DNA from: Escherichia phage vB_Ec-M-J
Direction: 5' to 3' (one strand)
Sequence record: OQ718158.1
DNA: 64,000 bases
Part shown: positions 16,591 to 58,515 of the stretch, one piece after another
How the letters are laid out: each line of letters begins with the position of its first letter
How positions within the stretch are numbered: the first letter of the stretch is position 1
The notes under the pieces: model-generated
The model's input: only the letters and a program-made list of their open reading frames with translations
What the model was told of the DNA's origin: nothing
The model's database searches: none
Made by a program: the position numbers and the translations under genes

Positions 16591-16598
16591 TTTAGTGC

Positions 16599-16627
16599 TT
16601 TACATGAGCATTCAGGTGTGTTATAAT
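16599..16627 (+). promoter_or_regulatory. sigma70-like promoter
   Basis: -35 TTTACA, 17-nt spacer, extended -10 TGTTATAAT; 28 nt upstream of the gene at 16655. Confidence 0.5.
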
Positions 16628-16654
16628 CGCTTTTAACAGAGTACAGGAGAAGAT

Positions 16655-19866: not shown

Positions 19867-19877
19867 CGGAGAACTAC

Positions 19878-20429: not shown

Positions 20430-21028
20430 GAAAAAGTTATCAAGAAGCTATTGACCTAATTCGAGAAGTTATTAAGGCGGCTCCAGGTGCGATAGCATTC
20501 AAGAAGTCCCTATATAAAAAGTATGGTCCCATGTCAAGTATGTGCTGTCAAAAGAAACGTAGTAAATTTACTACGCAGTACTGGCATGATTCTATTATCC
20601 TGAGTAATGAACATCAGCGTATTTTAACAATCGAATCAGTAGATAATCAATATGGTGAAGGAATGATTTGTGTTCCTGACTATGATGAAATTAATTTCAA
20701 TTGTGGAGATTATGAGACAACATTATTATTACACGAGGGTTACCCTGAAGGTGATGTAATGGCAGAGTATAATCCAAAAACCAAAATACTGAAACGTGGT
20801 ATGCAGTTCAAAATCAATAACAAAGATGATGTGGAAGCAGCACTAATGCAACTTAGTACTAGTGAACCTATCACTATTGATGTAGAAGAGTTATGGGGCA
20901 TCATTTCAGTACTTAATGAGTGTTATAAAATTAAATCATTACATAAGTACTCTATCATTTTACATACTAATTGTGCAATGATAAAATGCAAGAACATACA
21001 AGAGATGGTGGTTCCAGATGAACTTTAA
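20426..21028 (+). CDS. hypothetical protein, family A (divergent)
   Basis: ATG 20426 overlapping upstream TGA; motif EAALMQLSTS. Confidence 0.55.
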   Translation: MRKSYQEAIDLIREVIKAAPGAIAFKKSLYKKYGPMSSMCCQKKRSKFTTQYWHDSIILSNEHQRILTIESVDNQYGEGMICVPDYDEINFNCGDYETTLLLHEGYPEGDVMAEYNPKTKILKRGMQFKINNKDDVEAALMQLSTSEPITIDVEELWGIISVLNECYKIKSLHKYSIILHTNCAMIKCKNIQEMVVPDEL

Positions 21029-21602
21029 AGAAATAGAAAGTAAAATTAAGTACTTCAAAGATATTAAAAAACTTTGGGAAAAGTATAAAATTGATTATCA
21101 GTTCCAAGATGATGATACTGTTCAAAACATTGATATTAATATTCGTGTGAAGTTCAAGAATGGTAGTTATGGTGAAGTTAAATTGAATGCTATTGGTGTA
21201 TTCCTTAAAGATTATGATGGTTCTTCACTTGCTCAATTCGATTTCACACCTGATCCTGATGATATGTTACTGAGTGAAATCAATGCATATGACCTTGAGA
21301 TGTTTAGTGGGAAGCCTTTACTATTCCGCTTATCAGATGAATGGGATGAGGTTTACTACACATACAAAGATGGAGTGATTCGAGACGTGAATGATGAAGT
21401 AGTAAATGATATGGAAGAACGTCTATTTCAAGAATCATGTGTGTCATCGGAGTCATATACATATCAATATCTTCTTGACATGTTCGATTTGTATAGTAAA
21501 ATAGATTCAGAAATGAGTACTTTAAGTATTCAATACCTTACAATCAACGACTATGCACAACTTGAAACAGTAGTGAAAGCTCTGGTCAAAGTACTGAAAT
21601 AG
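21018..21602 (+). CDS. hypothetical protein, family A
   Basis: motif EERLFQESCV. Confidence 0.6.
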   Translation: MNFKEIESKIKYFKDIKKLWEKYKIDYQFQDDDTVQNIDINIRVKFKNGSYGEVKLNAIGVFLKDYDGSSLAQFDFTPDPDDMLLSEINAYDLEMFSGKPLLFRLSDEWDEVYYTYKDGVIRDVNDEVVNDMEERLFQESCVSSESYTYQYLLDMFDLYSKIDSEMSTLSIQYLTINDYAQLETVVKALVKVLK

Positions 21603-21611
21603 GAATGAATT

Positions 21612-22025
21612 ATGAAACTGTATCATGCGAGTACTGTAAAAATTGATAACTTTTATATCCCGTATGGTGGCCTTCATATGGGAGGCAAACACAGTGCTCT
21701 AGAAGCTGCATTACGCAAGCTGAGAAGCCCACTAAACGTCGTTGACGCTGATACAGTATACTTGCATACCTTAGAAGTTGATGTTGATAACGTGCTTCTA
21801 TGGGAAGATTTAGGTAGTGATGATGAGTGGCGTGGGCTGATTGAACATTGTAATTCTAAAGGTTACGATGCTGTTCAGTACACAAATGAATACGAGCCGG
21901 ATAATGTTCCTAGTTATATGATTTGGGATACATCTAAAATTCGTATTATTGAAGTTGATGCGATGCATATGGATGATGCAGAAATGATCATCGAAGATTT
22001 CCTTGATGAATATGAAGGTGTATAA
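21612..22025 (+). CDS. hypothetical protein
   Basis: 137-aa acidic ORF; no family motif. Confidence 0.55.
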   Translation: MKLYHASTVKIDNFYIPYGGLHMGGKHSALEAALRKLRSPLNVVDADTVYLHTLEVDVDNVLLWEDLGSDDEWRGLIEHCNSKGYDAVQYTNEYEPDNVPSYMIWDTSKIRIIEVDAMHMDDAEMIIEDFLDEYEGV

Positions 22026-22543
22026 TGATTGAACCTATGACAGTACTAGCACGTACTAAACTATTATTGAAGATTGCTGAGATATTCACTGTTCTTATGT
22101 ACAAAAATAAAGACATAACTGACTTAGGTATTAAGCAACCTTGGTCTGTGTCAAGGTTCTCTGCATTCTACAGATTATCATATAATGGTGAAACTGTTCT
22201 TGATTTTAATCCAAAAGCCAAGTTTATGAATTACGCTGCATTATATGAATGTAATGGTGGATTAACAAATGACTTCACTGAAATAAAAGTACAATCAGAA
22301 TCATTAGAATTTAATGACTTACTATATCCAGAATTTAAGTTAACTGAAGAAATACTTTTCCAGTACTCTCTGATTCTCAAAGATACCAAAAGTCTTGAGT
22401 ACTACAAAGAGTTAGTAGATATTTTTAAGAATACTCGATTTACAAAAGATATTGTGATATTCTGGTATGCAGAGCATGTTACTGAGGAATTGCTTGAAGA
22501 ATTTCTTCTAAATATGACAGCAATCAAGGAGAAGTTATGTTAG
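22025..22543 (+). CDS. hypothetical protein, family A
   Basis: motif TEEILFQYSLIL. Confidence 0.6.
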   Translation: MIEPMTVLARTKLLLKIAEIFTVLMYKNKDITDLGIKQPWSVSRFSAFYRLSYNGETVLDFNPKAKFMNYAALYECNGGLTNDFTEIKVQSESLEFNDLLYPEFKLTEEILFQYSLILKDTKSLEYYKELVDIFKNTRFTKDIVIFWYAEHVTEELLEEFLLNMTAIKEKLC

Positions 22544-23010
22544 ACATTTTAGGAAACATCGATACAGCAAATTATTTTATTCAAGATGCACTGTTCAATA
22601 CAGTACAGAAAGGGTTGGATGTACGATGTAATATCCATCAGGGAGATGGGTATTTTGTTGATATCACTGAAACACGCAAGAACGTGTTCAATTTAAACAT
22701 TACCACATTGACACGTCAGAACATTGCACGTATTTTGGTCAATAAAGATGAAGTAGTTCTTCGTTATAATTCCAAATTCCTGTTCACATACAAGAAGAAG
22801 ACTGACATGTTCAGTACTAATTTGTTTGATGAACCCTTCAATCTGGAAGACTTAGAAGCAACATTCTTTACACAGAATACTATGCTGAAATTCAATGATG
22901 TTGAATTTTCATCAGAAGTAATGTCTGAAACACTACAAATGGTTAAGGTAGTATTCTATGCTTTTCAACAGTTTAACGAAGAACGAAACAAGGTTAACAA
23001 CAACAGATGA
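22537..23010 (+). CDS. hypothetical protein (degenerate family A)
   Basis: AGGAGAAG RBS; weak motif EATFFTQNTM. Confidence 0.5.
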   Translation: MLDILGNIDTANYFIQDALFNTVQKGLDVRCNIHQGDGYFVDITETRKNVFNLNITTLTRQNIARILVNKDEVVLRYNSKFLFTYKKKTDMFSTNLFDEPFNLEDLEATFFTQNTMLKFNDVEFSSEVMSETLQMVKVVFYAFQQFNEERNKVNNNR

Positions 23011-23371
23011 ACTAATCGCGGCGATGGGAGCCAATGAGAAATACTTCAATGGGATTCATTTTTTTAAAACGTATCTTAGTGAAAGTAAAGTACTATATGT
23101 ATACGGTTCCCAGTACTGCATTGTCGCAAAGCACCCAGATTCGATTTCACTAAAATTTAACACTTATTCAAAAAACTTCTTGACGATTAATAAAAGCAAT
23201 GTTACTATGTCTGGTATAGGGAATCAGGTTGTTGAGATTCCTTTGGACTCAATTGATTCTATTGAGTTCTTTCAATACGAGTGCTTAGGTGTTGATTTTG
23301 GTACTGTCAGTACTGAATCTATGCGAACATTAATTAATTTACTTAAAGGTAAAGTTCATGCTTTTAACTAA
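22958..23371 (+). CDS. hypothetical protein, family A
   Basis: motif SIEFFQYECL; start uncertain (alternative ATG 23024). Confidence 0.45.
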   Translation: MLFNSLTKNETRLTTTDELIAAMGANEKYFNGIHFFKTYLSESKVLYVYGSQYCIVAKHPDSISLKFNTYSKNFLTINKSNVTMSGIGNQVVEIPLDSIDSIEFFQYECLGVDFGTVSTESMRTLINLLKGKVHAFN

Positions 23372-23858
23372 TTCGATGAAGAATTCATTTAAAATTATCA
23401 AAGAAATACTAAATGGGTCTAAAACTTCTAGTGGGTCTTCCTTTACTAGTGACCAGATCCAACACAGTACAAAGGATTGTACTGTAATCTTTGGGTTACA
23501 TAGTCTGCGTTTGACAATAGTAAATAATATTGATAACACAGCAATTGTAATCACCCCATGTCATATTCAGAATGAAACAGGTGCATACTTACACCACATG
23601 GGGACTGTATTCTACATCTTCAATACTGAAGAAAACATTGTTAAAGAATACAACACACTCAATGTTGATGCAGGTGAGTTATTCCAATTGAGTACTGTCA
23701 ATGATTGTAACTTCAGTGACAATGCAGAAGTACTTCCATTGTTTCTAAGTCTTCTCAATAACATGGAAAAACTAACCACTGCATACAACAAAAGTGACGT
23801 ACCGCAAGCAGTATTGAATATCACCGAAGCAATGGAGAAATACAAAGCTGTGACCTAA
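23358..23858 (+). CDS. hypothetical protein, family A
   Basis: motif AGELFQLSTVN. Confidence 0.6.
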   Translation: MLLTNSMKNSFKIIKEILNGSKTSSGSSFTSDQIQHSTKDCTVIFGLHSLRLTIVNNIDNTAIVITPCHIQNETGAYLHHMGTVFYIFNTEENIVKEYNTLNVDAGELFQLSTVNDCNFSDNAEVLPLFLSLLNNMEKLTTAYNKSDVPQAVLNITEAMEKYKAVT

Positions 23859-23900
23859 TATATGTGCACATGGAGTGCCTTTGAAGATCAAGGATAGATC

Positions 23901-24374
23901 ATGGAGATTAAAACTGTTGAGAATGGAAAGATAGATGACATTTTAGAGTTGGACGCATTCAAAGTTCATGATATAATGTTCAATGTAAAGGACATAATTC
24001 AGTGCTTGTTTTTATGCAGTAAAACTATGCACGACTTCTTTCACAATCCAAATACTAATGTTTTCATACTAACAATCAGTACTAGCAATTCGTTTATCAT
24101 GGGTATGCCTATGAGTACAAATGACGAGTACATTGATTGTGTTATTCGTAACAATGATAATATTACCCCACAATCTGAAGTACGTAAGAAAAAGAATACA
24201 TACACTATCAAAGATGATAAAATCATGATGTGTTGTAGTAAAGGGTTTATTTTGGATAATTTTAAAGTGAAAGATAGTTATCATGATTTTAAAGTATCAG
24301 AGACACAAACTAATGTAGTTCTTTACGCAAGTGATATTGAAAGCCTAACAGTTAAAGATCCCGATTTGGAGTAA
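23901..24374 (+). CDS. hypothetical protein
   Basis: 157-aa ORF; AAGGA RBS. Confidence 0.55.
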   Translation: MEIKTVENGKIDDILELDAFKVHDIMFNVKDIIQCLFLCSKTMHDFFHNPNTNVFILTISTSNSFIMGMPMSTNDEYIDCVIRNNDNITPQSEVRKKKNTYTIKDDKIMMCCSKGFILDNFKVKDSYHDFKVSETQTNVVLYASDIESLTVKDPDLE

Positions 24375-24376
24375 GT

Positions 24377-24508
24377 ATGGCTAAAAATGTAAACAACTTT
24401 GTACAAAAGCATATGAATGAGTTTAATAAACCTCAAACACATGTGGACCGTAAAAAAGCAATGAAGAATGGTAAAGTAAAACACAAGTCGAGATTTATTC
24501 TCGACTAA
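24377..24508 (+). CDS. hypothetical small basic protein (43 aa)
   Basis: short Lys-rich ORF not in the ORF track, ending inside a terminator hairpin. Confidence 0.3.
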   Translation: MAKNVNNFVQKHMNEFNKPQTHVDRKKAMKNGKVKHKSRFILD

Positions 24509-24515
24509 TTTTTTA
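24487..24515 (+). terminator. rho-independent terminator
   Basis: hairpin GTCGAGA-tttat-TCTCGAC followed by TAATTTTTT. Confidence 0.65.
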
Positions 24516-24541
24516 TCCGAAATTTAGGAGATTGTATTACT

Positions 24542-25390
24542 ATGGATACAACAGATTTTCGTAATTTCAAAAAGTATTCAGTACTTGAACATATCAACGA
24601 ATTTCTGAATTCCCCAACACCATTTGGTATCAGTACATCAGATACATACGATGGATATAGAATCTTCCCATGCAATGACTTTCAAATTTCTGTCAAAAAA
24701 GGTACTTCAAAAGAAGTTGCAATTCGTGATGTAGTACTGTATAGCGATTCTTCTATTTCTTACTGTCATGATGTGAACAATTTTGAATCTCTTTCAACAC
24801 CTAATTGTTCATACTACAAATCCAATGACACAATGATGTACAAAGAAGAACACATCAATGGGGTTTCGTTTTATAAAACCGCCAGCGATAAATCATATAC
24901 ATCTAGAGATGATTTTGGAAAATATACATGCACTATGTATACGGATGATGAAAAATCAAATCGTATTCATTCATTCGAATCCAAATTCAAAGAGAGTGAA
25001 GTTTCAAATATCACTATACAAGAAAAGGTTACCGAAGATGGTGTTGTGTATCGTAGTACTGCATTCTTCCGAATGAAAGATATTGCAACTGGTCGCCCAA
25101 TGATGTATAATATTGACATATTCATGAAAGGTGAATCATCGGAAGTGGTGATTAGTACTGGTTATCGTGCCAACTACACATTTACAATGGAATCACCTGA
25201 TGCATCGTTGGTACATCTATTCAACAATTTATATACTTTCCAATTCGAACTTGGTTTCGAAACAAATGAATATCAAATATTTGAGATATTAAAAAGTAAT
25301 ATTATTAATAAATTGGAATATTACTTCAAGTTAGGCGGGAAGATGAACATAGTTAATACTATGTTACGCAACATAAAAGAAACAATGTAA
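24542..25390 (+). CDS. hypothetical protein
   Basis: 282-aa ORF; AGGAG RBS. Confidence 0.6.
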   Translation: MDTTDFRNFKKYSVLEHINEFLNSPTPFGISTSDTYDGYRIFPCNDFQISVKKGTSKEVAIRDVVLYSDSSISYCHDVNNFESLSTPNCSYYKSNDTMMYKEEHINGVSFYKTASDKSYTSRDDFGKYTCTMYTDDEKSNRIHSFESKFKESEVSNITIQEKVTEDGVVYRSTAFFRMKDIATGRPMMYNIDIFMKGESSEVVISTGYRANYTFTMESPDASLVHLFNNLYTFQFELGFETNEYQIFEILKSNIINKLEYYFKLGGKMNIVNTMLRNIKETM

Positions 25391-25406
25391 TTATGGAGGA
25401 TTTGGT

Positions 25407-25700
25407 ATGGATACTAAATTCAAACTTATGTTCAAAACAGAGCCGTATATCCCTTATACTGGTGAACGTTTTATTCCACCTGGTGCAGTGGAGATTGAGC
25501 ATCCTGATGGAACAAAATTGTATCTCAGCCCATGTTCGTATGAACGTGCAGTTGAAATGCTAATTATGAATAGTAAACATTGTAGTAATAAGTACATTAG
25601 CTACTTATACAATGAACATATTCTAGAATTTAATGATGAGAATATGTTCATGCTGGCTATTAACGATTTCAATAACTGGCACGAAAGTTTGACTATTTGA
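25407..25700 (+). CDS. hypothetical protein
   Basis: 97-aa ORF; GGAGGA RBS. Confidence 0.55.
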   Translation: MDTKFKLMFKTEPYIPYTGERFIPPGAVEIEHPDGTKLYLSPCSYERAVEMLIMNSKHCSNKYISYLYNEHILEFNDENMFMLAINDFNNWHESLTI

Positions 25701-25710
25701 TAAAATATTG

Positions 25711-25738
25711 TGGACATGACAATTCCTTGTGATATAAT
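25711..25738 (+). promoter_or_regulatory. sigma70-like promoter (TGGACA-N16-TGATATAAT)
   Basis: -35 TGGACA 25711-25716, -10 TATAAT 25733-25738 preceded by TGA. Confidence 0.55.
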
Positions 25739-25771
25739 GTTCACATCTTTTTTTGATAAATGGAGATATAG

Positions 25772-26158
25772 ATGAATACAAGTTCTGTTCTAAAAGCTAT
25801 TGGTGGTGTACTTCTGATTGAAGTCCAGGGTGAACCTAAGCTATGTTGCTTAGAAGACATGAAGAATACTAAACACTTCAGTACTGGACAGATTTTCAAT
25901 GCTATTCGTGTTCTTAACGACAAATCAGTACAAGACTATGGAAAGGTATGGCCTTCGTATGTAAATCCTGAAGGTGAAATTAGTGCTGATTGGAAAACAA
26001 TTGAAGCAGTACGTGTGAGTTGTGAGAGCGATTGGGATTTCATCGTTGAAGTATGTGACCAACTGCAAGAAGATGTGCCAGAGATTGTCGAACGTAAAGA
26101 AGTTCTAGCACAACTTGATAAATTCCGTCACGGTACTCTACCGTATGACGTAATCTAA
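25772..26158 (+). CDS. hypothetical protein
   Basis: 128-aa ORF; GGAGA RBS. Confidence 0.6.
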   Translation: MNTSSVLKAIGGVLLIEVQGEPKLCCLEDMKNTKHFSTGQIFNAIRVLNDKSVQDYGKVWPSYVNPEGEISADWKTIEAVRVSCESDWDFIVEVCDQLQEDVPEIVERKEVLAQLDKFRHGTLPYDVI

Positions 26159-26209
26159 TCTGATTTATTAAAAACTATCTAACTAACATTATATAAAAAG
26201 GAATTTAAA

Positions 26210-26515
26210 ATGGAAGACAACGGAATGAAATTTGATATGTTTGAAGGTGTACCAGAGTTCGATTTCAATAAACTTGAAAATGGTGAAGAATCAGAACTAG
26301 TAAGTGTTACACTAAAATCAGATACCAAAAAGAAATATTCCCCATCAGTTCGTGCTCGTTCTCAAGAAGAATATGAAACCTTCATTGAGAGTATTCATTA
26401 CGAAACGTTCCATCATGCAGATGGTACTCCGTATGAAGTTCGTGTTACAGTACTGAAGCCTGAAGTAAACCCAATGGAAAATCTACGTCCTGTTTACTGC
26501 TGGGCAAGCCACTAA
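26210..26515 (+). CDS. hypothetical protein
   Basis: 101-aa ORF; AGGAA RBS. Confidence 0.55.
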   Translation: MEDNGMKFDMFEGVPEFDFNKLENGEESELVSVTLKSDTKKKYSPSVRARSQEEYETFIESIHYETFHHADGTPYEVRVTVLKPEVNPMENLRPVYCWASH

Positions 26516-26523
26516 TAAACCAA

Positions 26524-26556
26524 AGGACGGGATATAATATCTCGTCCTTTTTTTGT
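26524..26556 (+). terminator. rho-independent terminator
   Basis: hairpin AGGACG...CGTCCT followed by TTTTTTT. Confidence 0.6.
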
Positions 26557-26566
26557 CGGGAGATAT

Positions 26567-27415
26567 ATGAAACTTTATCTAATCGTTGACTACAGTAAGG
26601 GTTATTATGACTACGCAGAAGAATCTGAAGGGTATTGCTCGTCTACTAATGTCAATGTACGCACAAGTAATACACATGAGCATGAATCTATTACAAGCCT
26701 AAAAGATTTCATCGCATATCGAGCATTTGAAAAGAATTTCTGTCGTAGTAGATATTCGAAGTTTGAGTACCCGTTAATTGATGTTCCTGATGAATTGATG
26801 TTCCAGTTAATGCTCACTGGAGTACAAGATTATGATTACATCGCGTACAATCACATTACTAAGAAAATTTATATCGGTACGTCAACACATGACATTTCTA
26901 TGTATGCATCATGCCCCGATGATCGAATGAATGATAGAAAATCATACTATAGTGGATCAGTTGGTTCAAATGATTCATTAAATGAAAATTTATTCTTTGA
27001 GTACGAGTTTGATAATCATCGAGGGAATAAAGACCGAGAAGATTATTGTACTGAAATTGATAGTACCAATGGATATGAAGAAGTGAAAGAAGCGTTAATG
27101 CCATATATCCTTGACAAGTACTACAAAGATTTTCAGTACTGTAGTAATTTTCTAATCAGAAATTCTATCATAATAGGTCGTCAAAGTACTGCATTCTCTA
27201 AGTACTACAATGATTCCCCTGTTGCTGAAAATGAAAACTGTAATGTTCTCTCAATCCCACGTGAAGATATGGTATTCATGTTCACATCTTTCATTGAAGA
27301 TGATGAGTTGTATGTAAAAAACAAGCACAGGTTCATGCCAAGTAAGATTGAGGTTATGAGAAGCTTAAGTGCAGATATCTTAACGAATTTCACTGAAAAA
27401 ACAGAATACAACTGA
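26567..27415 (+). CDS. hypothetical protein with family-A-like motif
   Basis: 282-aa ORF; GGGAGA RBS; motif PDELMFQLMLTG. Confidence 0.6.
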   Translation: MKLYLIVDYSKGYYDYAEESEGYCSSTNVNVRTSNTHEHESITSLKDFIAYRAFEKNFCRSRYSKFEYPLIDVPDELMFQLMLTGVQDYDYIAYNHITKKIYIGTSTHDISMYASCPDDRMNDRKSYYSGSVGSNDSLNENLFFEYEFDNHRGNKDREDYCTEIDSTNGYEEVKEALMPYILDKYYKDFQYCSNFLIRNSIIIGRQSTAFSKYYNDSPVAENENCNVLSIPREDMVFMFTSFIEDDELYVKNKHRFMPSKIEVMRSLSADILTNFTEKTEYN

Positions 27416-27441
27416 GACATACCATAAGTTTATGATATAAT
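27414..27441 (+). promoter_or_regulatory. sigma70-like promoter (GAGACA-N16-TGATATAAT)
   Basis: -35 GAGACA 27414-27419, -10 TATAAT 27436-27441 preceded by TGA; faces the ORF-free island. Confidence 0.45.
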
Positions 27442-27444
27442 GTA

Positions 27445-27478
27445 AGGTGACAGCAGAATATGTTGTCACCTTTTTTTA
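27445..27478 (+). terminator. rho-independent terminator-like hairpin
   Basis: AGGTGACAG...TTGTCACCT followed by TTTTTTTT. Confidence 0.6.
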
Positions 27479-28096
27479 ATCCTGAAAGGTTCCATATGGA
27501 AATGATTGAAGCCTAATCCACTCGAAAAGTAGAGGGTAGATGAGTAGTCCTTTCAGTACGAACAGCAAATGAAACCCGTTAGATGATGGCATAGTTTGAA
27601 CCACTCACGGCAATGCGGCTGTATAAAGAACTCCAATAGGATAAAGAGAGTTCCTCGATAGACATATAAGGATCGCACCTTACCAATTATCTAAGGGAGA
27701 TTTCATGAGAAATTTGCGGTCGTAATTTATACAAAATAGTTGCGTCCAAAATTCGTGAAATCAAATACAAGTACTGGTCATATGGTATTTGTATTATGTG
27801 TCGGGATGTTTAAGACCGACGACCGTTGCTACAAGAACCGCGATAGAGAGAAACAGAGCAACCCGCTTTCGCCTCGTAAGAGAATTCGTGATATGAACTA
27901 TGTGAAGGCCACCAGCGTCAAACTTTTTTTGTTCTTTCCCCTGCGGGGGGATGAAATATGCTCAAGCAAACCCCGTCAATATTAATTAAAACAAATCATA
28001 GTACTTTCGTTGAATTAGACATGCGAAGCGTGTATAATTCGACTGGTGTTGATGAAGTCAACGCCATGTACAGTCATTGATGTTTCCATAGGAATA
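27479..28096 (+). ncRNA. candidate structured non-coding RNA or regulatory island (identity unknown)
   Basis: ~600 bp with no credible ORF in a dense genome, visibly higher GC, palindrome TTCCATATGGAA, long-range complement CCTGAAAGG / CCTTTCAG, GC hairpin CCCCTGCGGGG. Confidence 0.25.
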
Positions 28097-28642
28097 ATGA
28101 TGTCATTTATTAAAAAATCTAAAAGCGTCACTTATAAAACACTAGAATTTGTTGATTCAGACAATCAGAACCAAGACCAGGAGAATTTTACTGGTTTTGT
28201 TGTGATTAAAGAAAAGGGATGTATTTCGTACATCAAAGAGTTGCAGTGCGGTTTTGAATTAACTTCCATTAAGTTATTCCCAACCAAGAAGCCTACAATT
28301 CTTAAAGCTCGTTATGGGAACTACTACGAAGAGCGTTATAGTAATAATCTAATCAGTGCGAAAGCACATATCGTCAATGGTGAACTAGAAGGAGAATATA
28401 GAAAATTCAACCCACAAGGAAAATGTGTTTGGGTTAAATACTTCAATTCAGGAAATGATGTAACATCAGAAATTATTGAGTTTTTAGGTTTAACATGTAC
28501 CCTTGAAACTCTTCATGATTACAAATTTAATACTGAAGAAGAGTTTAATCTGATGATGCGTTATGGATCACATTTTAAATTTTTATATGAATACAACATT
28601 GACAGTAGTACTTTTGATGACATAGTACTTAACTGTCTATAA
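28097..28642 (+). CDS. hypothetical protein
   Basis: ATG 28097 after AGGA; repeated G-x-Y/F motifs; C-terminal EEEFNLMM resembling family A. Confidence 0.55.
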   Translation: MMSFIKKSKSVTYKTLEFVDSDNQNQDQENFTGFVVIKEKGCISYIKELQCGFELTSIKLFPTKKPTILKARYGNYYEERYSNNLISAKAHIVNGELEGEYRKFNPQGKCVWVKYFNSGNDVTSEIIEFLGLTCTLETLHDYKFNTEEEFNLMMRYGSHFKFLYEYNIDSSTFDDIVLNCL

Positions 28643-28658
28643 TCAAAGGAAATTATGT

Positions 28659-29183
28659 ATGTCGAAGAAGGATGCTTCGAAGAAAAAACAATCAGTACAT
28701 TTCAGTACTGGAAAAGATAACTGGACTACTCCAAAGGATTTCTTTGAAGATTTGGATGAACTCTGGGAATTTACACTAGATGCAGCGTGTGTCAAAGAAA
28801 CTGCATTGTGTGATAAGTTCTTTACACCAGAAGACAATTCACTTGAACAGGACTGGGGAAACAATATCGTGTGGCTCAACCCACCGTACAGTGATTTGAA
28901 AACGTGGTTATCTAAGGCAGTTGATGCATATAATAACGGGGCAACTGTAGTTATTCTTGTACCCTCAAGAACCGATACAATTGCTTTTCAGGATTATGCT
29001 GCTAAAATATGTGATTGTATTTGTTTTATAAAAGGTCGCTTAAAGTTCGGCATTCCTGAAGAACCAGATAAAAAGACGGACAGTGCACCATTCCCTAGTT
29101 GTTTAATAGTACTTGATAAGTATTTGACTCCAGCTAAAATCAACTATCTTAAATCTCTTGGTCAGGTGATGAAGAACATATGA
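28659..29183 (+). CDS. dam: phage-type DNA N6-adenine methyltransferase (Dam family)
   Basis: NPPY catalytic motif (WLNPPYSD), 174 aa, layout typical of the small phage Dam family. Confidence 0.8.
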   Translation: MSKKDASKKKQSVHFSTGKDNWTTPKDFFEDLDELWEFTLDAACVKETALCDKFFTPEDNSLEQDWGNNIVWLNPPYSDLKTWLSKAVDAYNNGATVVILVPSRTDTIAFQDYAAKICDCICFIKGRLKFGIPEEPDKKTDSAPFPSCLIVLDKYLTPAKINYLKSLGQVMKNI

Positions 29184-29713
29184 AAGAAACATGTATATTA
29201 TCATTTATGCGATGTAACCCAATACATCACGGACATGGTTTAGTGTTTGAAAAAGCTCAAGCACTACAAGAACAGTACAATGCGGATTTGAAAATATTCC
29301 TTAGTACCAGTACTGATGCCGTCAAAAACCCATTACCTCCTGAACTGAAAATGTACTATACAGAAGGATTTTACCCATCTGTACAAGAAAATATCTATAC
29401 AGAAGATAATCTGTTTGATATAATGAGAGAACTGGATGGAAAGTACTTAGATGTTCTTTTCATATGTGGTTCAGATAGACTTGAACCATTCCAAAAAACA
29501 CTTGACACGTACAATGGGAAGTTATATAATTTTTGTTCAATCAAGGCAGTTCAAGCTGGAATTGACCGAAATGTAAGTCGCTACAGTTCCACACAGATGC
29601 GTGAGTTTGCCAAGAATGAAGATTTTAATAGCTTCAGTACTTTTCTACCTGGTAATGATGATGCACTGAAAATTAAACTATTTGAAGATGTAATAAAATA
29701 CATGAGGAAATAA
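29180..29713 (+). CDS. HxGH nucleotidyltransferase, NMN/NaMN adenylyltransferase-like
   Basis: N-terminal NPIHHGHG (H-x-G-H) and C-terminal SSTQMR (ISSTxxR-like) motifs. Confidence 0.6.
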   Translation: MKETCILSFMRCNPIHHGHGLVFEKAQALQEQYNADLKIFLSTSTDAVKNPLPPELKMYYTEGFYPSVQENIYTEDNLFDIMRELDGKYLDVLFICGSDRLEPFQKTLDTYNGKLYNFCSIKAVQAGIDRNVSRYSSTQMREFAKNEDFNSFSTFLPGNDDALKIKLFEDVIKYMRK

Positions 29714-29715
29714 CT

Positions 29716-30009
29716 ATGTCAGTACTGTTTAAAACTAACCCAGTACTTTGGGATCAGAATGAGGATTCGGGTTTCCGTTCAATCCATGTTGAATTCAAAG
29801 GTAATACGGTGGTTGCAATCATTGCAAACAAAACTTTAGGAAACTGGACTGCACAAGTTGTTCCTATGGGATATTCTTATACATCTGATGAAGTTGCGTT
29901 TCTGGCTGAATTATATAGTCAAACACCATTCATCATCAATGTTCTAGAGCGTAGTGATAAGTTAACACATGACGAAGTAATTGACTTCCTGGCGAACTTA
30001 CATGTCTGA
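29716..30009 (+). CDS. hypothetical protein
   Basis: 97-aa ORF; GAGGAA RBS. Confidence 0.5.
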   Translation: MSVLFKTNPVLWDQNEDSGFRSIHVEFKGNTVVAIIANKTLGNWTAQVVPMGYSYTSDEVAFLAELYSQTPFIINVLERSDKLTHDEVIDFLANLHV

Positions 30010-39389: not shown

Positions 39390-40322
39390 ATGCCAACTAT
39401 CACACTAACAGTTGGATTGCCTGGGTGTGGTAAAACTACATGGGCAGTGCAAGAGATTAAAAAAGCCAAATCCAAGACTATCAACATCAACCGTGATGAT
39501 ATTCGTGAATCTATGGCTGGGTCACATGATGCTTACAAATTCAACGATGCTAATGAGCAGTACGTAACTAATTTACAGTTCAGTGCAGCAAATTCAGCCG
39601 CAGAGAATGGTTGGAACATCATCATATCCGATACGAACCTTAAACAACATTTCCGTAATCTATGGAAAGTATGGGCTATAGATAATGGTTATGATTACAA
39701 AGAAAAGAATTTCTATGATGATTTTGTACCTAATGAAGACCGTGGTGCAGATGTTCATGAATTCTTTAAGATTAAAGAGTTCGTAAAACTTTGTAAGAAA
39801 TATAACCTCCAGCGTGAGCGTTCAGTACAAGATAATATCATTGACACTATGGCAGATACGTACTATTATAGTAAGGCATTACACATTGGTTACTATGGTA
39901 ATTCACGAGAAGCTGCTATTATCGTTGATATCGACGGTACTCTTGCTCATAAATGGGGACGTAACCCGTTCGATGAAAGTACTGTACTCCAGGATACACC
40001 AGACGAAGAAGTTATTTTGTCGATTATCGCAGAAGCAGTTTTTCATAAACGCAAGATTATCGTCATGAGTGGGCGTACTGAAGGGTGTCGTGCTGATACC
40101 GAACAGTGGCTTAAGAATTGGGGTGTTCCTTACGATGCGTTGTTTATGCGAGGCATCGATGATAAACGTCCTGATGATGTTGTTAAATTCGACCTGTACA
40201 TGAAAAATGTGGTTGATCATTACGATGTTAAAAAGGTTTATGATGACCGCAATCAAGTTGTTTTTATGTGGCGTAAGCTACTTGGGTTGAAAGTTTTCCA
40301 AGTGGCAGAAGGAAATTTCTAA
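39390..40322 (+). CDS. pseT: polynucleotide 5'-kinase / 3'-phosphatase (T4 Pnk-like)
   Basis: 310 aa; Walker A GLPGCGKTT, NINRDD, ISDTNL, HAD motif DIDGTLA, C-terminal WRKLLGLKVFQVAEGNF match T4 PseT. Confidence 0.92.
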   Translation: MPTITLTVGLPGCGKTTWAVQEIKKAKSKTININRDDIRESMAGSHDAYKFNDANEQYVTNLQFSAANSAAENGWNIIISDTNLKQHFRNLWKVWAIDNGYDYKEKNFYDDFVPNEDRGADVHEFFKIKEFVKLCKKYNLQRERSVQDNIIDTMADTYYYSKALHIGYYGNSREAAIIVDIDGTLAHKWGRNPFDESTVLQDTPDEEVILSIIAEAVFHKRKIIVMSGRTEGCRADTEQWLKNWGVPYDALFMRGIDDKRPDDVVKFDLYMKNVVDHYDVKKVYDDRNQVVFMWRKLLGLKVFQVAEGNF

Positions 40323-49670: not shown

Positions 49671-50366
49671 ATGGTTGAACAATTCAATTTTGGTGGTTAT
49701 GCTGGTGGTGAAGTTCGCAACATTTCTATTCCTTATGTAGTTGAAAAAGTTAATGGTGCAGAACGTACTTATGATCTAGCATCTCGTATGATGCAAGACC
49801 GTATCATTTTCCTTGATACTGACTTCAATGACCAAATGGCACATATCATCAAGCAACAATTGGTGTGGTTGGATTCTCAGGGTTCTGAACCAATTACCTT
49901 CTACATTAGTTCTCCTGGTGGTTCAGTACACGCAGGTTTGGGTATCGCTGACATTGCTAAGTCTTGTGTATCTCCTATCCGTACAGTAGTAATGGGTTAT
50001 GCAGCATCAATGGGTTGCTATACACAATCAGTAGTTGGGACTAAAGGTTTCCGTCTAGGTGGTAAGCGTTCTTACTTCATGTGTCATCAAGTAAGTTCCG
50101 GTACTCAGGGTCTGATTACCGATCAGAAGATTTCTTTGAAACACTCTGACGCATTGAACACACTATTGACGAAAGAAATTGCTGAAGCAGTTGGTGTATC
50201 ACACGAACAACTACTGAAAGATGCTGACCGTGACCTGTGGTTGAACGCTGAAGAAGCACTCGAATACGGTGAACATGGTTTCATTGATGGTATCATCCTT
50301 GGTCCACGCAACGAAGAAGGTAAGTATCTCGTCAAACGTCGCGGTGGCGTGGAAGAGTGGGTCTAA
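49671..50366 (+). CDS. clpP: ClpP-family serine protease subunit
   Basis: RIIFLDTDFNDQMAHIIKQQLVWL, ISSPGG, catalytic Ser in GYAASMG and His in FMCHQ align with bacterial ClpP. Confidence 0.9.
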   Translation: MVEQFNFGGYAGGEVRNISIPYVVEKVNGAERTYDLASRMMQDRIIFLDTDFNDQMAHIIKQQLVWLDSQGSEPITFYISSPGGSVHAGLGIADIAKSCVSPIRTVVMGYAASMGCYTQSVVGTKGFRLGGKRSYFMCHQVSSGTQGLITDQKISLKHSDALNTLLTKEIAEAVGVSHEQLLKDADRDLWLNAEEALEYGEHGFIDGIILGPRNEEGKYLVKRRGGVEEWV

Positions 50367-52323: not shown

Positions 52324-52759
52324 AGAGAGTAAATGCATTTCACAGAAAGTTGGTTGTGTTATTGTTAAAAATAACCGAGTATTGAGTACTGGTTATAATG
52401 GCACTCCATCTAAACAACCTAACTGCTGTGACGCTAATGAGCACTTAGTTAATGGTGGACGTTTCCAAGACTGGGTTAGCGATGACGCAAAGCATGAACA
52501 CCATGAATGGAGTAATATCCATGAAATCCATGCTGAAATGAATGCATTGTTATACAGTTCACCTACCGAACGTCAGGGAGCAACACTTTACACAACGCTG
52601 CAACCATGCTATACTTGTTCTAAGTTGATCGCGGGAAGTGGTATTGCTCGCGTGATTTATCACAAAAGTTATCCTCGCACTCCACCAGAAGCTATTAAAG
52701 TACTGGAAGATGCTGGGATTATTGTAAATTGCATTTATGATAAGGGGTTGGGACTTTGA
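52277..52759 (+). CDS. dCMP deaminase (T4 Cd-like)
   Basis: N-terminus LKIAEVVAEESKC, then zinc-binding HAE and PCYTC motifs and STGYNGTPS, as in T4 Cd. Confidence 0.85.
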   Translation: MMKHLTWLKIAEVVAEESKCISQKVGCVIVKNNRVLSTGYNGTPSKQPNCCDANEHLVNGGRFQDWVSDDAKHEHHEWSNIHEIHAEMNALLYSSPTERQGATLYTTLQPCYTCSKLIAGSGIARVIYHKSYPRTPPEAIKVLEDAGIIVNCIYDKGLGL

Positions 52760-53016
52760 CTTTCTTGATTTTAGGTATCCCATTTGCAGTTGTGATTCTT
52801 GTACTTTTAGTGATGATGGTATTAAATGATAATACTACTCCACCAGTGATGCGTAATCATGAAGTACGATTTTCAGCACAAAACAACAAGTACTACATTG
52901 TAAATTGTTTAACTTGTAAAGAGTATAAAGTAACTGGTAAATTTGGTTTTACCATTTATTATAAAGACCGTGTTGAAGCTGACATGATTTGTCAGAAACT
53001 TAATACGGTAGAATAA
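52756..53016 (+). CDS. hypothetical small membrane protein
   Basis: TTG start after AAGGGG; N-terminal hydrophobic helix. Confidence 0.4.
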   Translation: MTFLILGIPFAVVILVLLVMMVLNDNTTPPVMRNHEVRFSAQNNKYYIVNCLTCKEYKVTGKFGFTIYYKDRVEADMICQKLNTVE

Positions 53017-53024
53017 AAAAAAAA

Positions 53025-53050
53025 GGAGCCATAAGGCTCCTTTTTCTTTT
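53025..53050 (+). terminator. rho-independent terminator
   Basis: A-run, hairpin GGAGCC-ataa-GGCTCC, then TTTTTCTTTT. Confidence 0.7.
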
Positions 53051-53137: not shown

Positions 53138-53165
53138 TAGACATTATACATTAGTGTGATATAAT
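53138..53165 (+). promoter_or_regulatory. sigma70-like promoter (TAGACA-N16-TGATATAAT)
   Basis: -35 TAGACA 53138-53143, -10 TATAAT 53160-53165 preceded by TGTGA. Confidence 0.55.
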
Positions 53166-53300: not shown

Positions 53301-53909
53301 GTGGTACGATTATGTAAAGAAATCATCCAATCTATTATTATTATTTTCTTAATTAACTTTCCTGCAAGTGCAGGTGTTGAAAGAAAAAGTATCATTAGAT
53401 ATGATGAATCTAAACAGACAGTTCAGTTCATTTCAACTTTAACTGAAAATACTGTAAACCGTTTGATGGTTTTTAGAGAAACACACCCATTTGACACTAT
53501 CATCATTACGTCACCTGGTGGTGATTTTGATGCGGGAGTGGCACTAGGAAATTTTGTCAATGATAACAATTTAACAATTATTGTTGAAAGATATTGTAAT
53601 TCTTCTTGCACTATCGCATTCTTTAGTGCTAATATAGAAAACAGATACATGATGAAGGACTCAATTCTAGGTCTACATAATGTGTCAATCGAAAGTAAAG
53701 CACGAAATAGTGATGACACATACATATCAGTTCGCCAAATGACTATTTTTGCTGAACAGCTATCAACTAAGGTTGGTGTTCTATTTGCGTTATATGCAGC
53801 GAATGGTATTCCTCCAGAATTGTTAGTGGAGGTTAGTAAGGTTCGTGGTAATGAAGTTGTGAGACTTACACCAGATCAGTTGCTCGAATTAGGTAGTATC
53901 ATTCATTAG
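53301..53909 (+). CDS. exported ClpP/S49-like (crotonase-fold) peptidase-like protein
   Basis: GTG start after AGAGGG; N-terminal signal-like IIQSIIIIFLINFPASA; ITSPGGDFDAG ... CNSSCTIAFF ... LGLHN resembles the ClpP active-site scaffold. Confidence 0.45.
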   Translation: MVRLCKEIIQSIIIIFLINFPASAGVERKSIIRYDESKQTVQFISTLTENTVNRLMVFRETHPFDTIIITSPGGDFDAGVALGNFVNDNNLTIIVERYCNSSCTIAFFSANIENRYMMKDSILGLHNVSIESKARNSDDTYISVRQMTIFAEQLSTKVGVLFALYAANGIPPELLVEVSKVRGNEVVRLTPDQLLELGSIIH

Positions 53910-54001: not shown

Positions 54002-54262
54002 ATGACAAATTTACAAAACTTAACATCTCTTGTTTTTTATGCAACAACTATTGTATATTGCATTACATTAGTTTTAACATGTTTCATCTATAAAGACTAC
54101 AAACGTGGTTTTATGGATTCCAGTACACACAAATTTGCATCCAAGTTAGAAGCAGGAATTTACTATGTTCTATCAATTTCTTATGGAGCATGTTTACTTA
54201 CACTAGGGTTGCTGATATACTGGTTGTATACGGCACTTTTTGCACAAGGAGTTATTTCATGA
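54002..54262 (+). CDS. hypothetical small membrane protein
   Basis: 86 aa; AGGAG RBS; hydrophobic helices. Confidence 0.5.
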   Translation: MTNLQNLTSLVFYATTIVYCITLVLTCFIYKDYKRGFMDSSTHKFASKLEAGIYYVLSISYGACLLTLGLLIYWLYTALFAQGVIS

Positions 54263-54852
54263 CTTGTATTATCGCTCACACAAATGGCACATCTTCCTTC
54301 ATCGCTGGTGATAAATTAGGAAGCAATGGTTTCACTAAAGCAGTTCAAACTGAGCCTAAAGTGTTTGAGAAAGAGTTCATTAAACTCAATGAGGATGGTC
54401 TTTCTCGCACTAAAGAAGTAATGGCGTTGGGGTATACTACCTCGTTCCGCATGGGACAGTTGTTGAATTACAACCTAACTCTACCAGAACAAGTTGCAGG
54501 GGAAACCTTTTCACAGTATCTAGTACTGAAAGTTATTCCTATCATTCGTCAAATGTTTAAAGATGAATGGGGTGCTCGTGATGCATCACAAGATGTTGGT
54601 GGTGGTCAGTTCATTATTCTTCATAATCATACGATTTATGAAGTTCAAGAAGACTTTTCAGTACTGCAACCTAAAACACAAATTACTGCTGTCGGAAGTG
54701 GGACTTATCATGCAATTGCATCCATGTCAGCGTATATTGAAGTTCAAGAAGAAACCAATGTTCAGTTACATGAACGTGTTGAGTCTATTTTCAAAATTGT
54801 TAGTGATAATGTAACAAGTGTTAGTCCAGAGTTTGATATTTTGAAATACTGA
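54259..54852 (+). CDS. HslV/proteasome-beta-like Ntn hydrolase
   Basis: N-terminus M-TCIIAHTNGTSSFIAGDKLGSNG aligns with HslV [23 protein letters not shown] (Thr would be residue 1 after Met removal); later ITAVGSGTYHAIAS resembles HslV GSGG region; AAGGAG RBS. Confidence 0.6.
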   Translation: MTCIIAHTNGTSSFIAGDKLGSNGFTKAVQTEPKVFEKEFIKLNEDGLSRTKEVMALGYTTSFRMGQLLNYNLTLPEQVAGETFSQYLVLKVIPIIRQMFKDEWGARDASQDVGGGQFIILHNHTIYEVQEDFSVLQPKTQITAVGSGTYHAIASMSAYIEVQEETNVQLHERVESIFKIVSDNVTSVSPEFDILKY

Positions 54853-54883
54853 GAATAATAATTATAAAGAGAGAGTGTATCTG

Positions 54884-55075
54884 ATGGCATACATAATTTA
54901 CGAGTGGATTTTTTGTTTCATAGTTGTGTTTATTTGTGTGGTGTTATACAATCACACTAAATGTTTATACCGAGAATTCAGGAATGGTAATAAACATGGA
55001 CACAATAAGTGGATGTATGTCTATCATATTGCTATCATTGTATTTTTAGTATTAAACTTGATACTTTTTATATAA
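54884..55075 (+). CDS. hypothetical small membrane protein
   Basis: hydrophobic ~63-aa ORF (alternative GTG 54875). Confidence 0.4.
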   Translation: MAYIIYEWIFCFIVVFICVVLYNHTKCLYREFRNGNKHGHNKWMYVYHIAIIVFLVLNLILFI

Positions 55076-55084
55076 GGAGTAAAT

Positions 55085-55837
55085 GTGATATCAGATAAAT
55101 TTATACAAAATGCTGGGAACAAAAGATTACTTATAATTTCAGGGGCAGGTCTTTCAGTTGAGAGCGGGATGGAACCATTCCGCTTTGATGATGGGTTGTG
55201 GGACAATTTCAAAATTAATGATGTTTGTAACATTGCACGACTTAGTTCTAAGTATCATGTAGTTCATTCATTTTATAATACATTGCGTGTAAAATTAGGT
55301 GAATGTCATCCTAATGAAATGCATTACTTTATTAAATCATTAGAAGATTTGTATGGTGATTGTTTTTTACACATGACTTCTAATATGGATGATCTATATA
55401 CTAGAATTGGTGGAACCGAACTCAAACTACACGGCAATTTATGTGAAGTAATTGAGAACTTTTCTATTAATACCGATGATTACAATGTCATTAATTGTGG
55501 TTATGAACCATATATTCCTAAAGCTGATGTTTTTGCAAAACCAAATGTAGTGATGATTGGTGAGTATCATCGCTACGTTGATGGGGTACGTCTCCCCATT
55601 TATGAAGAACGAAATGAAGTGTTGAAAAGTCTCACAGAAAATGATACAGTTGTAGTTATTGGAAGTAGTGATACAGTACTGGTATGGTCCAGACTAGCTG
55701 GTGCACTTCCATGCTATAGTGTAAATGTTAACATCCGAAAAAATGATAATGATTTTCTTTTTAATGAGAAGGTCATCAAACCTGCGACGAAAGCAATTCC
55801 ACAGATTGAAACTATAATTAAGGAACGAATGCGATGA
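55085..55837 (+). CDS. Sir2-family protein (sirtuin-like NAD-dependent enzyme)
   Basis: GTG start eight nt after AAGGAG; sirtuin motifs GAGLSVESGMEPFR, TSNMDDL (TQNID-like) and catalytic-His context KLHGNL. Confidence 0.75.
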   Translation: MISDKFIQNAGNKRLLIISGAGLSVESGMEPFRFDDGLWDNFKINDVCNIARLSSKYHVVHSFYNTLRVKLGECHPNEMHYFIKSLEDLYGDCFLHMTSNMDDLYTRIGGTELKLHGNLCEVIENFSINTDDYNVINCGYEPYIPKADVFAKPNVVMIGEYHRYVDGVRLPIYEERNEVLKSLTENDTVVVIGSSDTVLVWSRLAGALPCYSVNVNIRKNDNDFLFNEKVIKPATKAIPQIETIIKERMR

Positions 55838-56385
55838 GTAAAGCGGAAGTACCACTGGGGCAAATGGGGAAACGTGCAAATTTTGTATTCTGTTTCTTTT
55901 ATGCAAAAGAATGTACCCCATACGCTGGTTATGAACTAAATGATATCCCAGTGGTTAACTTAGTACTCCTACAAGTGCGTTGGGATGGATTGTTGGGTGC
56001 ATGTGGTGGAACAGTTGAAAGTACTGATAAGTCATTAGAAGATGCGTTACAGCGTGAAGTTCAAGAAGAAATGAACTATATCATTGACAAAAGTCGCCTG
56101 TCTCCATTAAAATCACTTGAATTGTTTCCAGAGGGACACTCACATAGCTATAGTTATGAAATGACTTATGCTGAACTTAAAAAACTTCGTGATAATTATG
56201 CATATGGCAAACATGCTAGTGCAGAGGTGGCTGGTGTAAATTTATGTCACATCTCTCGTTATTCGAAGGGACAAAATCGAGAAGCAGGATATAATAATCT
56301 TATGACACAGAACTTCATCGGAACTGCGAAACAAGAATTAGAGTATCTTGTACAAAAAGAAAACTTACTAATCAGCTATCTATAG
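55834..56385 (+). CDS. Nudix hydrolase
   Basis: Nudix box GACGGTVESTDKSLEDALQREVQEEMN (G-x5-E-x7-R-E-V-x-E-E); ATG overlaps the Sir2 stop. Confidence 0.75.
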   Translation: MSKAEVPLGQMGKRANFVFCFFYAKECTPYAGYELNDIPVVNLVLLQVRWDGLLGACGGTVESTDKSLEDALQREVQEEMNYIIDKSRLSPLKSLELFPEGHSHSYSYEMTYAELKKLRDNYAYGKHASAEVAGVNLCHISRYSKGQNREAGYNNLMTQNFIGTAKQELEYLVQKENLLISYL

Positions 56386-57075: not shown

Positions 57076-58515
57076 ATGAAAAAATATACAATTGACACAA
57101 ACGTACTACTATCTGATCCAAATGCTACCATTGCTTTTGATGGAGCAGCTATCATTCTACCGTTCACAGTACTTGAAGAATTGGATTCAATTAAAAGTCG
57201 TAATGTGGATGTTTCCCGTGATGCTCGTGTTGCAATCCGTAACATTGAAGCTATCCTTTCTGATGCATCACATGAAGAAATTAGTAGTACTGGTGTTAAT
57301 ATTGCTGATGTTCATACTAATATGAGTCCTGAAAGCAAATTGTTTGTTATTACAAGCGAAGAAGCTGAAGCACTAATTCGTACTGCTGGTAACGAAGAGA
57401 AAGTTCAAACTCTTCTAAAAAGCACAGTACCAGATGATAAAATCATTTTAGTAGCATTAGCAACTGATTCAGTACTGGTTACCCGTGATATCAATATGCG
57501 TATCAAGGCTCTAAGCTACGGGGTGGAAGTTCAAGATTATCGTCATGATATCGTGATTGGTGATAGTGATTTGATTCACATTGGTCAACATCACCTTGAC
57601 CTACATTTCTGGGATGTGTATAGTAATCTGACTGATGTATCTATTCAGTCTGAACAAGTTGGTCGTCGTTTGTACCACTACATTCCAAAAAGCTTGATTG
57701 AACATATCATGCCACAAAATATTTGCATCGGTGATTACCTATATGATAATGCTGATGTTCTATTTGTGTACGAAGGTCAATCTGCAATTGAAGAAGATGA
57801 TGGTACTTTAACACCAGAAGATATTCTTGTATTCCAAGATATTGGACAATCTGTTGCTCTACGTGCTAAAGTGTGGGATATTAAGGCTAAGAATATTCAA
57901 CAAGCACTAGCAATCAACAGTATCCTAGATCCTGATGTTCATCTAACAGTACTGTTAGGTTCAGCAGGTACTGGTAAAACACTAATCACCATTGCAACTG
58001 CACTAGAGTTAGTTCTAGAGAAGAAAAAATACGACCGTATCATCTTCTCCAAAACACAAGATTCCCAATTCGAAGACATTGGTTTCTTGCCTGGTTCTGA
58101 AGCAGAGAAAGTGATTCCTTTCTGTGGTGCGGCAATCGATGCGTTGGAATTCCTACACAAAGATGATGCTAACCCACAAGGCAGTATCGAAGAAATCATG
58201 AAACGCAATGTTATCCAATTCAAAGCACTAAACTTCGTTCGTGGTCGTTCTTTCACAAATACTATCCTAGTAGTTGATGAATTCCAGAACATCACACCTG
58301 CTCAGGCAAAAACAATCTTGACTCGTGCAGGGATGAACTGTAAAGTGGTTATTATGGGCAACTTGAGCCAGATTGACTCTAAATTCATTAGTCCAGTAAA
58401 CAGCGGCCTAACTTATGTTACCGAGAAGTTCAAGAACTGGGACGGCTGTCGTGTAATCGAACTAGAAGGTGTCGTTCGTTCACCACTAGCAGAATTTGCA
58501 GAAGAAAATATGTAA
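57076..58515 (+). CDS. phoH: PhoH-like ATPase with N-terminal PIN domain
   Basis: N-terminal IDTNVLLSDPNA (PIN-like acidic pocket) and Walker A LLGSAGTGKT; 479 aa. Confidence 0.88.
   Translation: MKKYTIDTNVLLSDPNATIAFDGAAIILPFTVLEELDSIKSRNVDVSRDARVAIRNIEAILSDASHEEISSTGVNIADVHTNMSPESKLFVITSEEAEALIRTAGNEEKVQTLLKSTVPDDKIILVALATDSVLVTRDINMRIKALSYGVEVQDYRHDIVIGDSDLIHIGQHHLDLHFWDVYSNLTDVSIQSEQVGRRLYHYIPKSLIEHIMPQNICIGDYLYDNADVLFVYEGQSAIEEDDGTLTPEDILVFQDIGQSVALRAKVWDIKAKNIQQALAINSILDPDVHLTVLLGSAGTGKTLITIATALELVLEKKKYDRIIFSKTQDSQFEDIGFLPGSEAEKVIPFCGAAIDALEFLHKDDANPQGSIEEIMKRNVIQFKALNFVRGRSFTNTILVVDEFQNITPAQAKTILTRAGMNCKVVIMGNLSQIDSKFISPVNSGLTYVTEKFKNWDGCRVIELEGVVRSPLAEFAEENM

Follow-up and report, generated by a model that had tools for sequence, protein, structure and literature searches.

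A predicted propeptide-free N-terminal-threonine hydrolase of the proteasome-beta/HslV superfamily in Escherichia phage vB_Ec-M-J

We analysed a stretch of 64,000 nucleotides (the window) from Escherichia phage vB_Ec-M-J (OQ718158.1), and in it the gene at 54259..54852 (+), which encodes a propeptide-free N-terminal-threonine (Ntn) hydrolase of the proteasome-beta/HslV superfamily. The open reading frame (ORF) is 197 amino acids (aa) long; its translation opens MTCIIAHTNGTSSFIAGDKLGSNGFTKAVQTEPKVF, and the N-terminus of the protein is MTCIIAHTNGTSSFIAGDKLGSNG, starting MTC. A Shine-Dalgarno-like AAGGAG, read directly from the sequence at 54246..54251 (+), lies 8 nt 5' of the ATG at 54259. Immediately upstream is an 86-aa ORF with two hydrophobic, putatively transmembrane (TM) segments (54002..54262 (+)), and its TGA stop codon overlaps the hydrolase ATG. 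This 4-bp ATGA overlap, as read from the sequence, suggests translational coupling of the two genes. The 86-aa product matched no Pfam family and no PHROG family. The 197-aa protein has a deposited counterpart of 100% identity, annotated as 'protease' or 'hypothetical protein', and it is an already catalogued member of a known, functionally uncharacterised family.

A longer in-frame ORF begins at an ATG at 54190 and would give a propeptide form of the enzyme. This candidate was rejected on start conservation and on the spacing of its ribosome-binding site: a GGAG stands just 1 nt before ATG 54190, a distance unusable for ribosome binding. In nearly all of the top 150 family representatives, position 1 of the family profile falls on residue 1. 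Since nearly all relatives start at M-T and the upstream spacing is poor, the 54190 ORF is not the gene, and the same placement of profile position 1 indicates that the family carries no propeptide. Window positions 53300-56400 are 99.2-99.6% identical to the Escherichia jumbo phages WPEC5, EC.P1, CMSTMSU, Ecwhy_1 and fEgEco12, whose genomes measure 350-386 kb, and ~77% identical to PBECO4 and its relatives of the genus Asteriusvirus, to which phAPEC6 also belongs. Among the jumbo-phage orthologues, the pairwise ratio of nonsynonymous to synonymous substitution rates (dN/dS) of the hydrolase is 0.06-0.21, with dS near saturation, which indicates that the gene is maintained by purifying selection.

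The protein has the proteasome-beta/HslV Ntn-hydrolase fold. It matched PHROG 1040 ('peptidase HslV family') over residues 1-196 with E 2.6e-22. In a phmmer search of the PDB with the single sequence, HslV was matched at E 0.16 only; the single sequence is too diverged for curated models, so a family profile was needed. A profile built from an alignment of 37 relatives (A1) returned HslV as the top sequence match in the PDB (E 9e-8 to 1e-6), followed by actinobacterial and archaeal proteasome beta subunits, then by BPH at ~2e-3 and, weakly, by connectase. Direct hhalign comparison of A1 with E. coli HslV gave a probability of 95.7% and E 9e-9 over residues 1-171. The predicted structure has the four-layer alpha-beta-beta-alpha arrangement of Ntn hydrolases, with helices H1-H4 present (H2 spans residues 84-104) and the C-terminal H5 absent. 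On structure comparison, HslV was a near-top fold match, and the hydrolase was as close to BPH as to HslV. The earlier note on this DNA had proposed such a fold from the sequence, and both fold and profile comparison recovered it.

These comparisons also place the protein relative to characterised enzymes. With 20S proteasome beta subunits (MEROPS T1) it shares the Thr1/Asp17/Lys33 arrangement and the alpha-beta-beta-alpha sandwich, and it differs from them in the absence of a propeptide and of an alpha-type partner, in a shorter C-terminus and in giving no match to PF00227. Its identity to BPH (PDB 5ovs, 5ovt, 5ovu) is 13-16%. BPH itself forms a tetradecameric double ring.

The active-site residues could be assigned by hhalign. 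Counted with the initiator Met, Thr2, Asp18, Lys34 and Gly58 of the hydrolase pair with Thr1, Asp17, Lys33 and Gly45 of mature HslV, and the GSGT segment (Gly146-Ser147-Gly148) pairs with the HslV GSGG motif, such that Ser147 corresponds to HslV Ser124 and proteasome Ser129. The N-terminal alignment with HslV and the GSGT placement had both been proposed in the earlier note. With MG1655 HslV as the reference, the former is free of gaps as far as Asp18, and the latter was borne out by hhalign and by the profile alignments. The equivalents of Thr1, Lys33 and the oxyanion Gly, which the note had named for checking, all stand in register with HslV, as do those of Asp17 and the Ser of the GSG element.

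Conservation was evaluated over 129 distinct sequences of the family, drawn from 75 viral loci and 71 bacterial ones, where the bacterial set comprises the loci in which ORF calling with a filter on GC content at third codon positions (GC3) recovered the family gene (71/80). Thr2, Asp18, Lys34, Gly58, Gly146 and Gly148 are invariant in 129/129 sequences, with the caveat for Thr2 that the sequences were trimmed at the MT motif, which was present in 141/146. The loci were retrieved through the motif TSFRMGQLL, and conservation at residues 60-69 is therefore given by construction. Cys3, which adjoins the nucleophile position, is present in 95% of the sequences. We considered Cys3 as an alternative nucleophile, exposed by removal of the 'MT' dipeptide to yield a Cys-Ntn type enzyme, and rejected it: the residue is Ala in EPS7-type members and Leu in a few others while Thr2 does not vary, so Cys3 is not the nucleophile.

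The family itself has been described. Fuchs, Alva and Lupas (2021) described 22 new proteasome homologs and noted that PPH, AAH and CPH of group I occur in phages (PMC8665760). PHROG 1040 is probably their AAH family. The hydrolase matches the PHROG 1040 profile, the matching sequences are distributed over alpha-proteobacteria, actinobacteria, Firmicutes and phages, and the subunit is a compact one with helices H1-H4. Like AAH, it is propeptide-free, lacks the C-terminal H5 and has no linked AAA+ gene. In contrast to the rest of PHROG 1040/AAH, the jumbo-phage clade has 14-19 additional residues in the hairpin on which Lys33 and the oxyanion Gly sit. An identity with PPH was rejected, since PPH has ~140 residues and no H2, whereas the hydrolase has 197 aa and an H2 at residues 84-104.

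Searches with the family profile returned 8,319 clusters (50% identity) at E <= 1e-3 and 2,137 at <= 1e-30. Among GenBank phage records, 196/50,697 contain the family. These include Asteriusvirus-type jumbo phages and essentially the whole Epseptimavirus (EPS7-like) group, as well as phages of Aeromonas, Vibrio, Xanthomonas, Geobacillus, Moorella and Salicola, and the gene is annotated there as 'peptidase HslV family', 'proteasome subunit-like', 'threonine-type endopeptidase' or 'nucleophile aminohydrolase'. At least 341 IMG/VR contigs carry it. A genome paper from 2020 had already listed, for a Salmonella jumbo phage, an HslV gene unaccompanied by HslU (PMC7823757). Two HslV genes are reported for Salmonella jumbo phage pSal-SNUABM-04 (PMC7823757). 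The remark in the earlier note that such proteases are unusual in phage genomes was overstated in view of these counts and of the phage homologs published in 2020-2021. Bacterial species genomes with the family number 383, with Azospirillum and other alpha-proteobacteria dominant; further carriers are Polyangiaceae, Paenibacillus and other Bacilli, Chloroflexota (Dehalococcoidia), bacteria of the candidate phyla radiation (CPR) and, among actinobacteria, Nocardiopsis and Microthrixaceae.

Several family members depart from the single compact subunit. Tandem paralogs were found in Aeromonas phage 2L372X (genes 210/211; locus L003, 4001-4552 and the next gene) and in locus L083 (4441-5001 and 5001-5552), and such pairs hint that hetero-oligomers may form in some phages. 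No second paralog was found in the window. Acidic C-terminal extensions of 100-200 aa occur in relatives P0121, P0124, P0131, P0138, P0139, P0151 and P0226 and in locus L004 (4001-4867); no Pfam domains were found in the extensions of family members.

Taken as a whole, we judge it probable that the gene product is a catalytically competent member of the proteasome-beta/HslV/BPH group of N-terminal-threonine hydrolases, belonging to PHROG 1040 and most likely to AAH. Four points weigh against this assignment. The single sequence gave no match to Pfam, including Proteasome (PF00227). Residue 147 is Cys in 86 of the 129 members, Ser in 38 (this protein included) and Ala in 4, such that the GSG serine is not a strictly conserved element. 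Membership in AAH, whose published representative is WP_035979212, was assigned by distribution and architecture. Finally, literature searches returned no experimental study of any phage member and no assay of the family.

If the assignment holds, the enzyme would be made inside the infected cell, in the cytoplasm, from a co-directional block of non-structural genes that includes DNA ligase, ClpP, dCMP deaminase, Sir2, Nudix and PhoH. Host methionine aminopeptidase would remove Met1 and so expose Thr1, whose hydroxyl would attack a peptide carbonyl, Lys33 and Asp17 being the other members of the triad; proteolysis is the presumed reaction. The oxyanion would be stabilised by the conserved Gly (HslV Gly45, proteasome Gly47) through its backbone NH, and the GSG serine would orient the Thr1 amine. 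By analogy with HslV and BPH, its nearest structural relatives, the hydrolase is likely to form rings, with a double ring as the probable assembly. A dedicated unfoldase encoded by the phage is probably not required, and the targets may be polypeptides that are unfolded or short, or else one particular target of host or phage origin.

The resemblance to HslV raised the question of how far it extends. Like HslV (ClpQ), the hydrolase carries Thr directly after Met1, has the Asp17, Lys33, Gly45 and GSG positions in register and is of similar size. Unlike HslV, it has Cys at position 2 (mature numbering) in place of Thr, its H1 opens with the family motif TTSFRMGQ where HslV has GGTADAF, it is ~16-20% identical to HslV, and no hslU adjoins it. 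The NCBIfam equivalog models for HslV gave 18.9 bits against a cut-off of 137 (NF003964) and 18.1 bits against 157.75 (TIGR03692). Because these scores lie so far below the cut-offs and no Pfam match was obtained, the hydrolase is not an HslV orthologue. The HslV-like reading of the earlier note stood for the fold and catalytic residues; the name HslV is too specific for this protein.

No AAA+ or HslU-like ORF was found in the 64-kb window. The sole Walker-A proteins there are a polynucleotide kinase (39390..40322) and a PhoH2-like protein (57076..58515), and when E. coli HslU was compared by phmmer, without filtering, with all stop-to-stop ORFs of the window, nothing better than E 1.1 resulted. 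Both results confirmed the earlier statement that an HslU-like ATPase is missing from this stretch. When HslU was searched by tblastn against all phage records, it matched just 4 Escherichia records, while at least 30 Escherichia jumbo-phage records have the hydrolase gene. The 146 loci (75 viral, 71 bacterial) likewise showed no conserved ATPase neighbour of the family gene, in agreement with the published finding of no co-occurring AAA+ partner (PMC8665760).

A rival reading, in line with the pairing with host HslU that the earlier note had considered, is that the enzyme is a functional HslV substitute. It would dock on the HslU hexamer of the host, and the resulting hybrid, an ATP-dependent protease, would redirect host proteolysis during infection. 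The E. coli host encodes hslVU, no phage ATPase is linked to the hydrolase gene, and HslV is the best PDB sequence match and a near-top fold match with identical catalytic residues. We nevertheless hold this hybrid to be distinctly unlikely. The score of 18.9 bits against the HslV cut-off of 137 and the identity of ~16-20% speak against it, and BPH, for which no unfoldase is known, matches the structure just as well. Members of the family are present in actinobacteria (Nocardiopsis, Microthrixaceae), in CPR bacteria and in Dehalococcoidia, and the Azospirillum gene is chromosomal, without an adjacent AAA+ gene within +/-6 kb. Table 1 of Fuchs et al. (2021) marks no HslV in actinobacteria (PMC8665760), and the presence of the family in a group recorded without HslV makes dependence on HslU unlikely for the family as a whole. 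HslV Lys28 and Arg35 align to Val and Phe in the hydrolase; we take these two residues to be contacts for the C-terminal tail of HslU and give the substitution little weight.

The feature that sets the jumbo-phage clade apart lies next to the active site. Residues 38-56 (54370..54426 (+)), between Lys34 and Gly58, form an extension of 14-19 residues that lengthens a beta-hairpin whose two strands carry Lys34 and Gly58, respectively. In the predicted structure, DSSP assigned the strands to residues 35-43 and 50-59, at a predicted local distance difference test score (pLDDT) of ~94-96. The extension columns are gapped in 113-125 of the 129 sequences, and the extension is absent from ~95% of the family. 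Its position may correspond to the S3/S4 insertion site discussed by Fuchs et al. (2021).

An insertion beside the active site, together with the missing unfoldase partner, would also be in keeping with a role other than proteolysis, in which the enzyme is a sequence-specific transpeptidase or ligase, similar to connectase, or an amidase acting on a small molecule or modified protein. The Ntn fold is chemically versatile (PMC8665760), and the connectase N-domain was weakly matched by 9/37 relatives (best E 0.0022), which is comparable to the Proteasome matches (11/37 relatives, best E 6.5e-4). Connectase is defined as a monomeric enzyme that lacks H1 and H2 and carries a two-helix lid insertion. 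The hydrolase differs from it: its model has both H1 and H2, which connectase lacks (PMC8665760), and its extension is a beta-hairpin rather than a two-helix lid and is missing from most of the family. A connectase-like ligase role is less likely on these structural grounds, and we regard a non-protease function in general as very improbable.

In several GenBank records the hydrolase gene, or else the ClpP-like gene near it, carries the label 'protease' or 'head maturation protease', which would make the enzyme a morphogenetic protease of prohead or virion maturation. Such proteases are encoded in the head module and found in proheads or virions. The hydrolase gene is located outside the head module, among genes for nucleotide metabolism and host takeover, and its phAPEC6 homolog gp345c (87.7% identity) does not appear among the 62 proteins of that phage's virion proteome (PMC7247149). 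phAPEC6 moreover has a T4-type prohead core protease, gp227c, whose gene adjoins that of the major head protein (PMC7247149), and in Azospirillum the family is chromosomal in a housekeeping context. A morphogenetic role can hardly be upheld on this evidence. The predicted intracellular hydrolase also has a more far-reaching version, which we consider rather unlikely: a stand-alone, unfoldase-free proteasome-like machine, or a specific peptide ligase, that would process a defined host target during takeover, with the hairpin extension selecting the substrate and the two ClpP-type and small membrane genes forming a 'proteolysis island' around it. If this were true, jumbo and EPS7-like phages would remove or process a host target, for example a defence or stress-response protein.

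Virus-encoded enzymes of the proteasome family have so far remained experimentally uncharacterised. We know of no group I homolog beyond HslV and BPH with a known substrate, partner or quaternary structure. Because the host is E. coli and close phages have been isolated, the coliphage hydrolase should be easy to work with, and the combination of a tractable host with strong purifying selection means that it could show how phages use such a protease with or without host HslU. Beyond a careful check of catalytic residues and gene context, the finding adds nothing to the existing annotation.

The surroundings of the gene differ from lineage to lineage, and no neighbour is conserved across the family in the 75 viral and 71 bacterial loci. 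The earlier note had described the hydrolase as preceded by a small membrane protein. Such a protein exists, with its two hydrophobic segments, as a clade-specific neighbour; as a conserved partner of the family it was rejected. A small TM ORF stands immediately 5' of the family gene in 7/73 loci, which is close to the background for other ORFs (125/1,223, ~10%). The 86-aa ORF is kept in 121Q-type genomes (L006), an unrelated 93-aa ORF takes its place in L008 and L009, and in a jumbo-phage subclade of 70% identity the ORF 5' of the hydrolase is unrelated or absent. A second small hydrophobic ORF of 66 aa (54875..55075 (+)) follows directly 3' of the hydrolase gene, which in this clade is flanked by two small membrane-protein-like ORFs.

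In EPS7 the family gene lies between thymidylate synthase and RNase H. Huge phages have recurrent neighbours, identified by eye from sequence motifs as an HD-domain protein, an NAD-dependent DNA ligase, a Thg1-like protein and PheRS alpha; we set these aside as lineage synteny. Aeromonas phage 2L372X and Vibrio phage 1.101.O have PhoH at a distance of 0.4-2.5 kb from the Ntn-hydrolase gene. PhoH is found near the family gene in three phage lineages, but in 9/75 viral loci, mostly of the same jumbo clade. The PhoH2-like P-loop protein of the window is 479 aa long (57076..58515 (+)), and its phAPEC6 orthologue gp341c was detected in virions. In Azospirillum and related alpha-proteobacteria (L100-L165), the neighbours were by eye of gltX-, cysS-, nadE- and ElbB/DJ-1-type, and a 77-aa TM ORF lies directly 3' of the family gene in Azospirillum-type loci. 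This conserved housekeeping neighbourhood indicates that the gene is resident in the bacteria and does not belong to a prophage. A search with the PADLOC defence models gave no match.

Three protease-type genes lie within ~5 kb of one another in the window, namely a ClpP homolog, a ClpP/NfeD-like gene and the hydrolase. The ClpP homolog (231 aa, 49671..50366 (+)) matched the NCBIfam ClpP subfamily at E 8e-46, under the equivalog cut-off, and no ClpX or other AAA+ gene for it was found in the window. The ClpP/NfeD-like protein (202 aa, 53301..53909 (+)) matched PHROG 26024 at E 4e-70 and Pfam CLP_protease at 20.6 bits (gathering cut-off 20.2), and it begins with a hydrophobic, signal-like N-terminus (MVRLCKEIIQSIIIIFLINFPASAG). 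The label 'head maturation protease' that it bears in some records is probably wrong, since in phAPEC6 its homolog gp346c is not a virion protein and gp227c is the prohead protease. The ClpP-like, membrane-protein and hydrolase genes are preceded by a near-consensus sigma-70-like promoter (53138..53165). Upstream of it, 3' of an ORF at 52756..53016, is a strong terminator-like hairpin (53020..53045 (+)) with a stem of 11 bp followed by a T-run.

Downstream of the hydrolase are a Sir2-family gene (55085..55837 (+), Pfam E 1.3e-19) and a Nudt16-like Nudix gene (55834..56385 (+), E 1.5e-18). These two overlap by 4 bp, which gives them the appearance of translational coupling, and they may constitute a pair related to NAD/ADP-ribose. 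At the other end of the window, positions ~1..30000 (+) hold a long series of ORFs that point the same way. Many of them are ~120-210 aa long, the fEgEco12 annotation lists every one as 'hypothetical', and they may represent paralog arrays.
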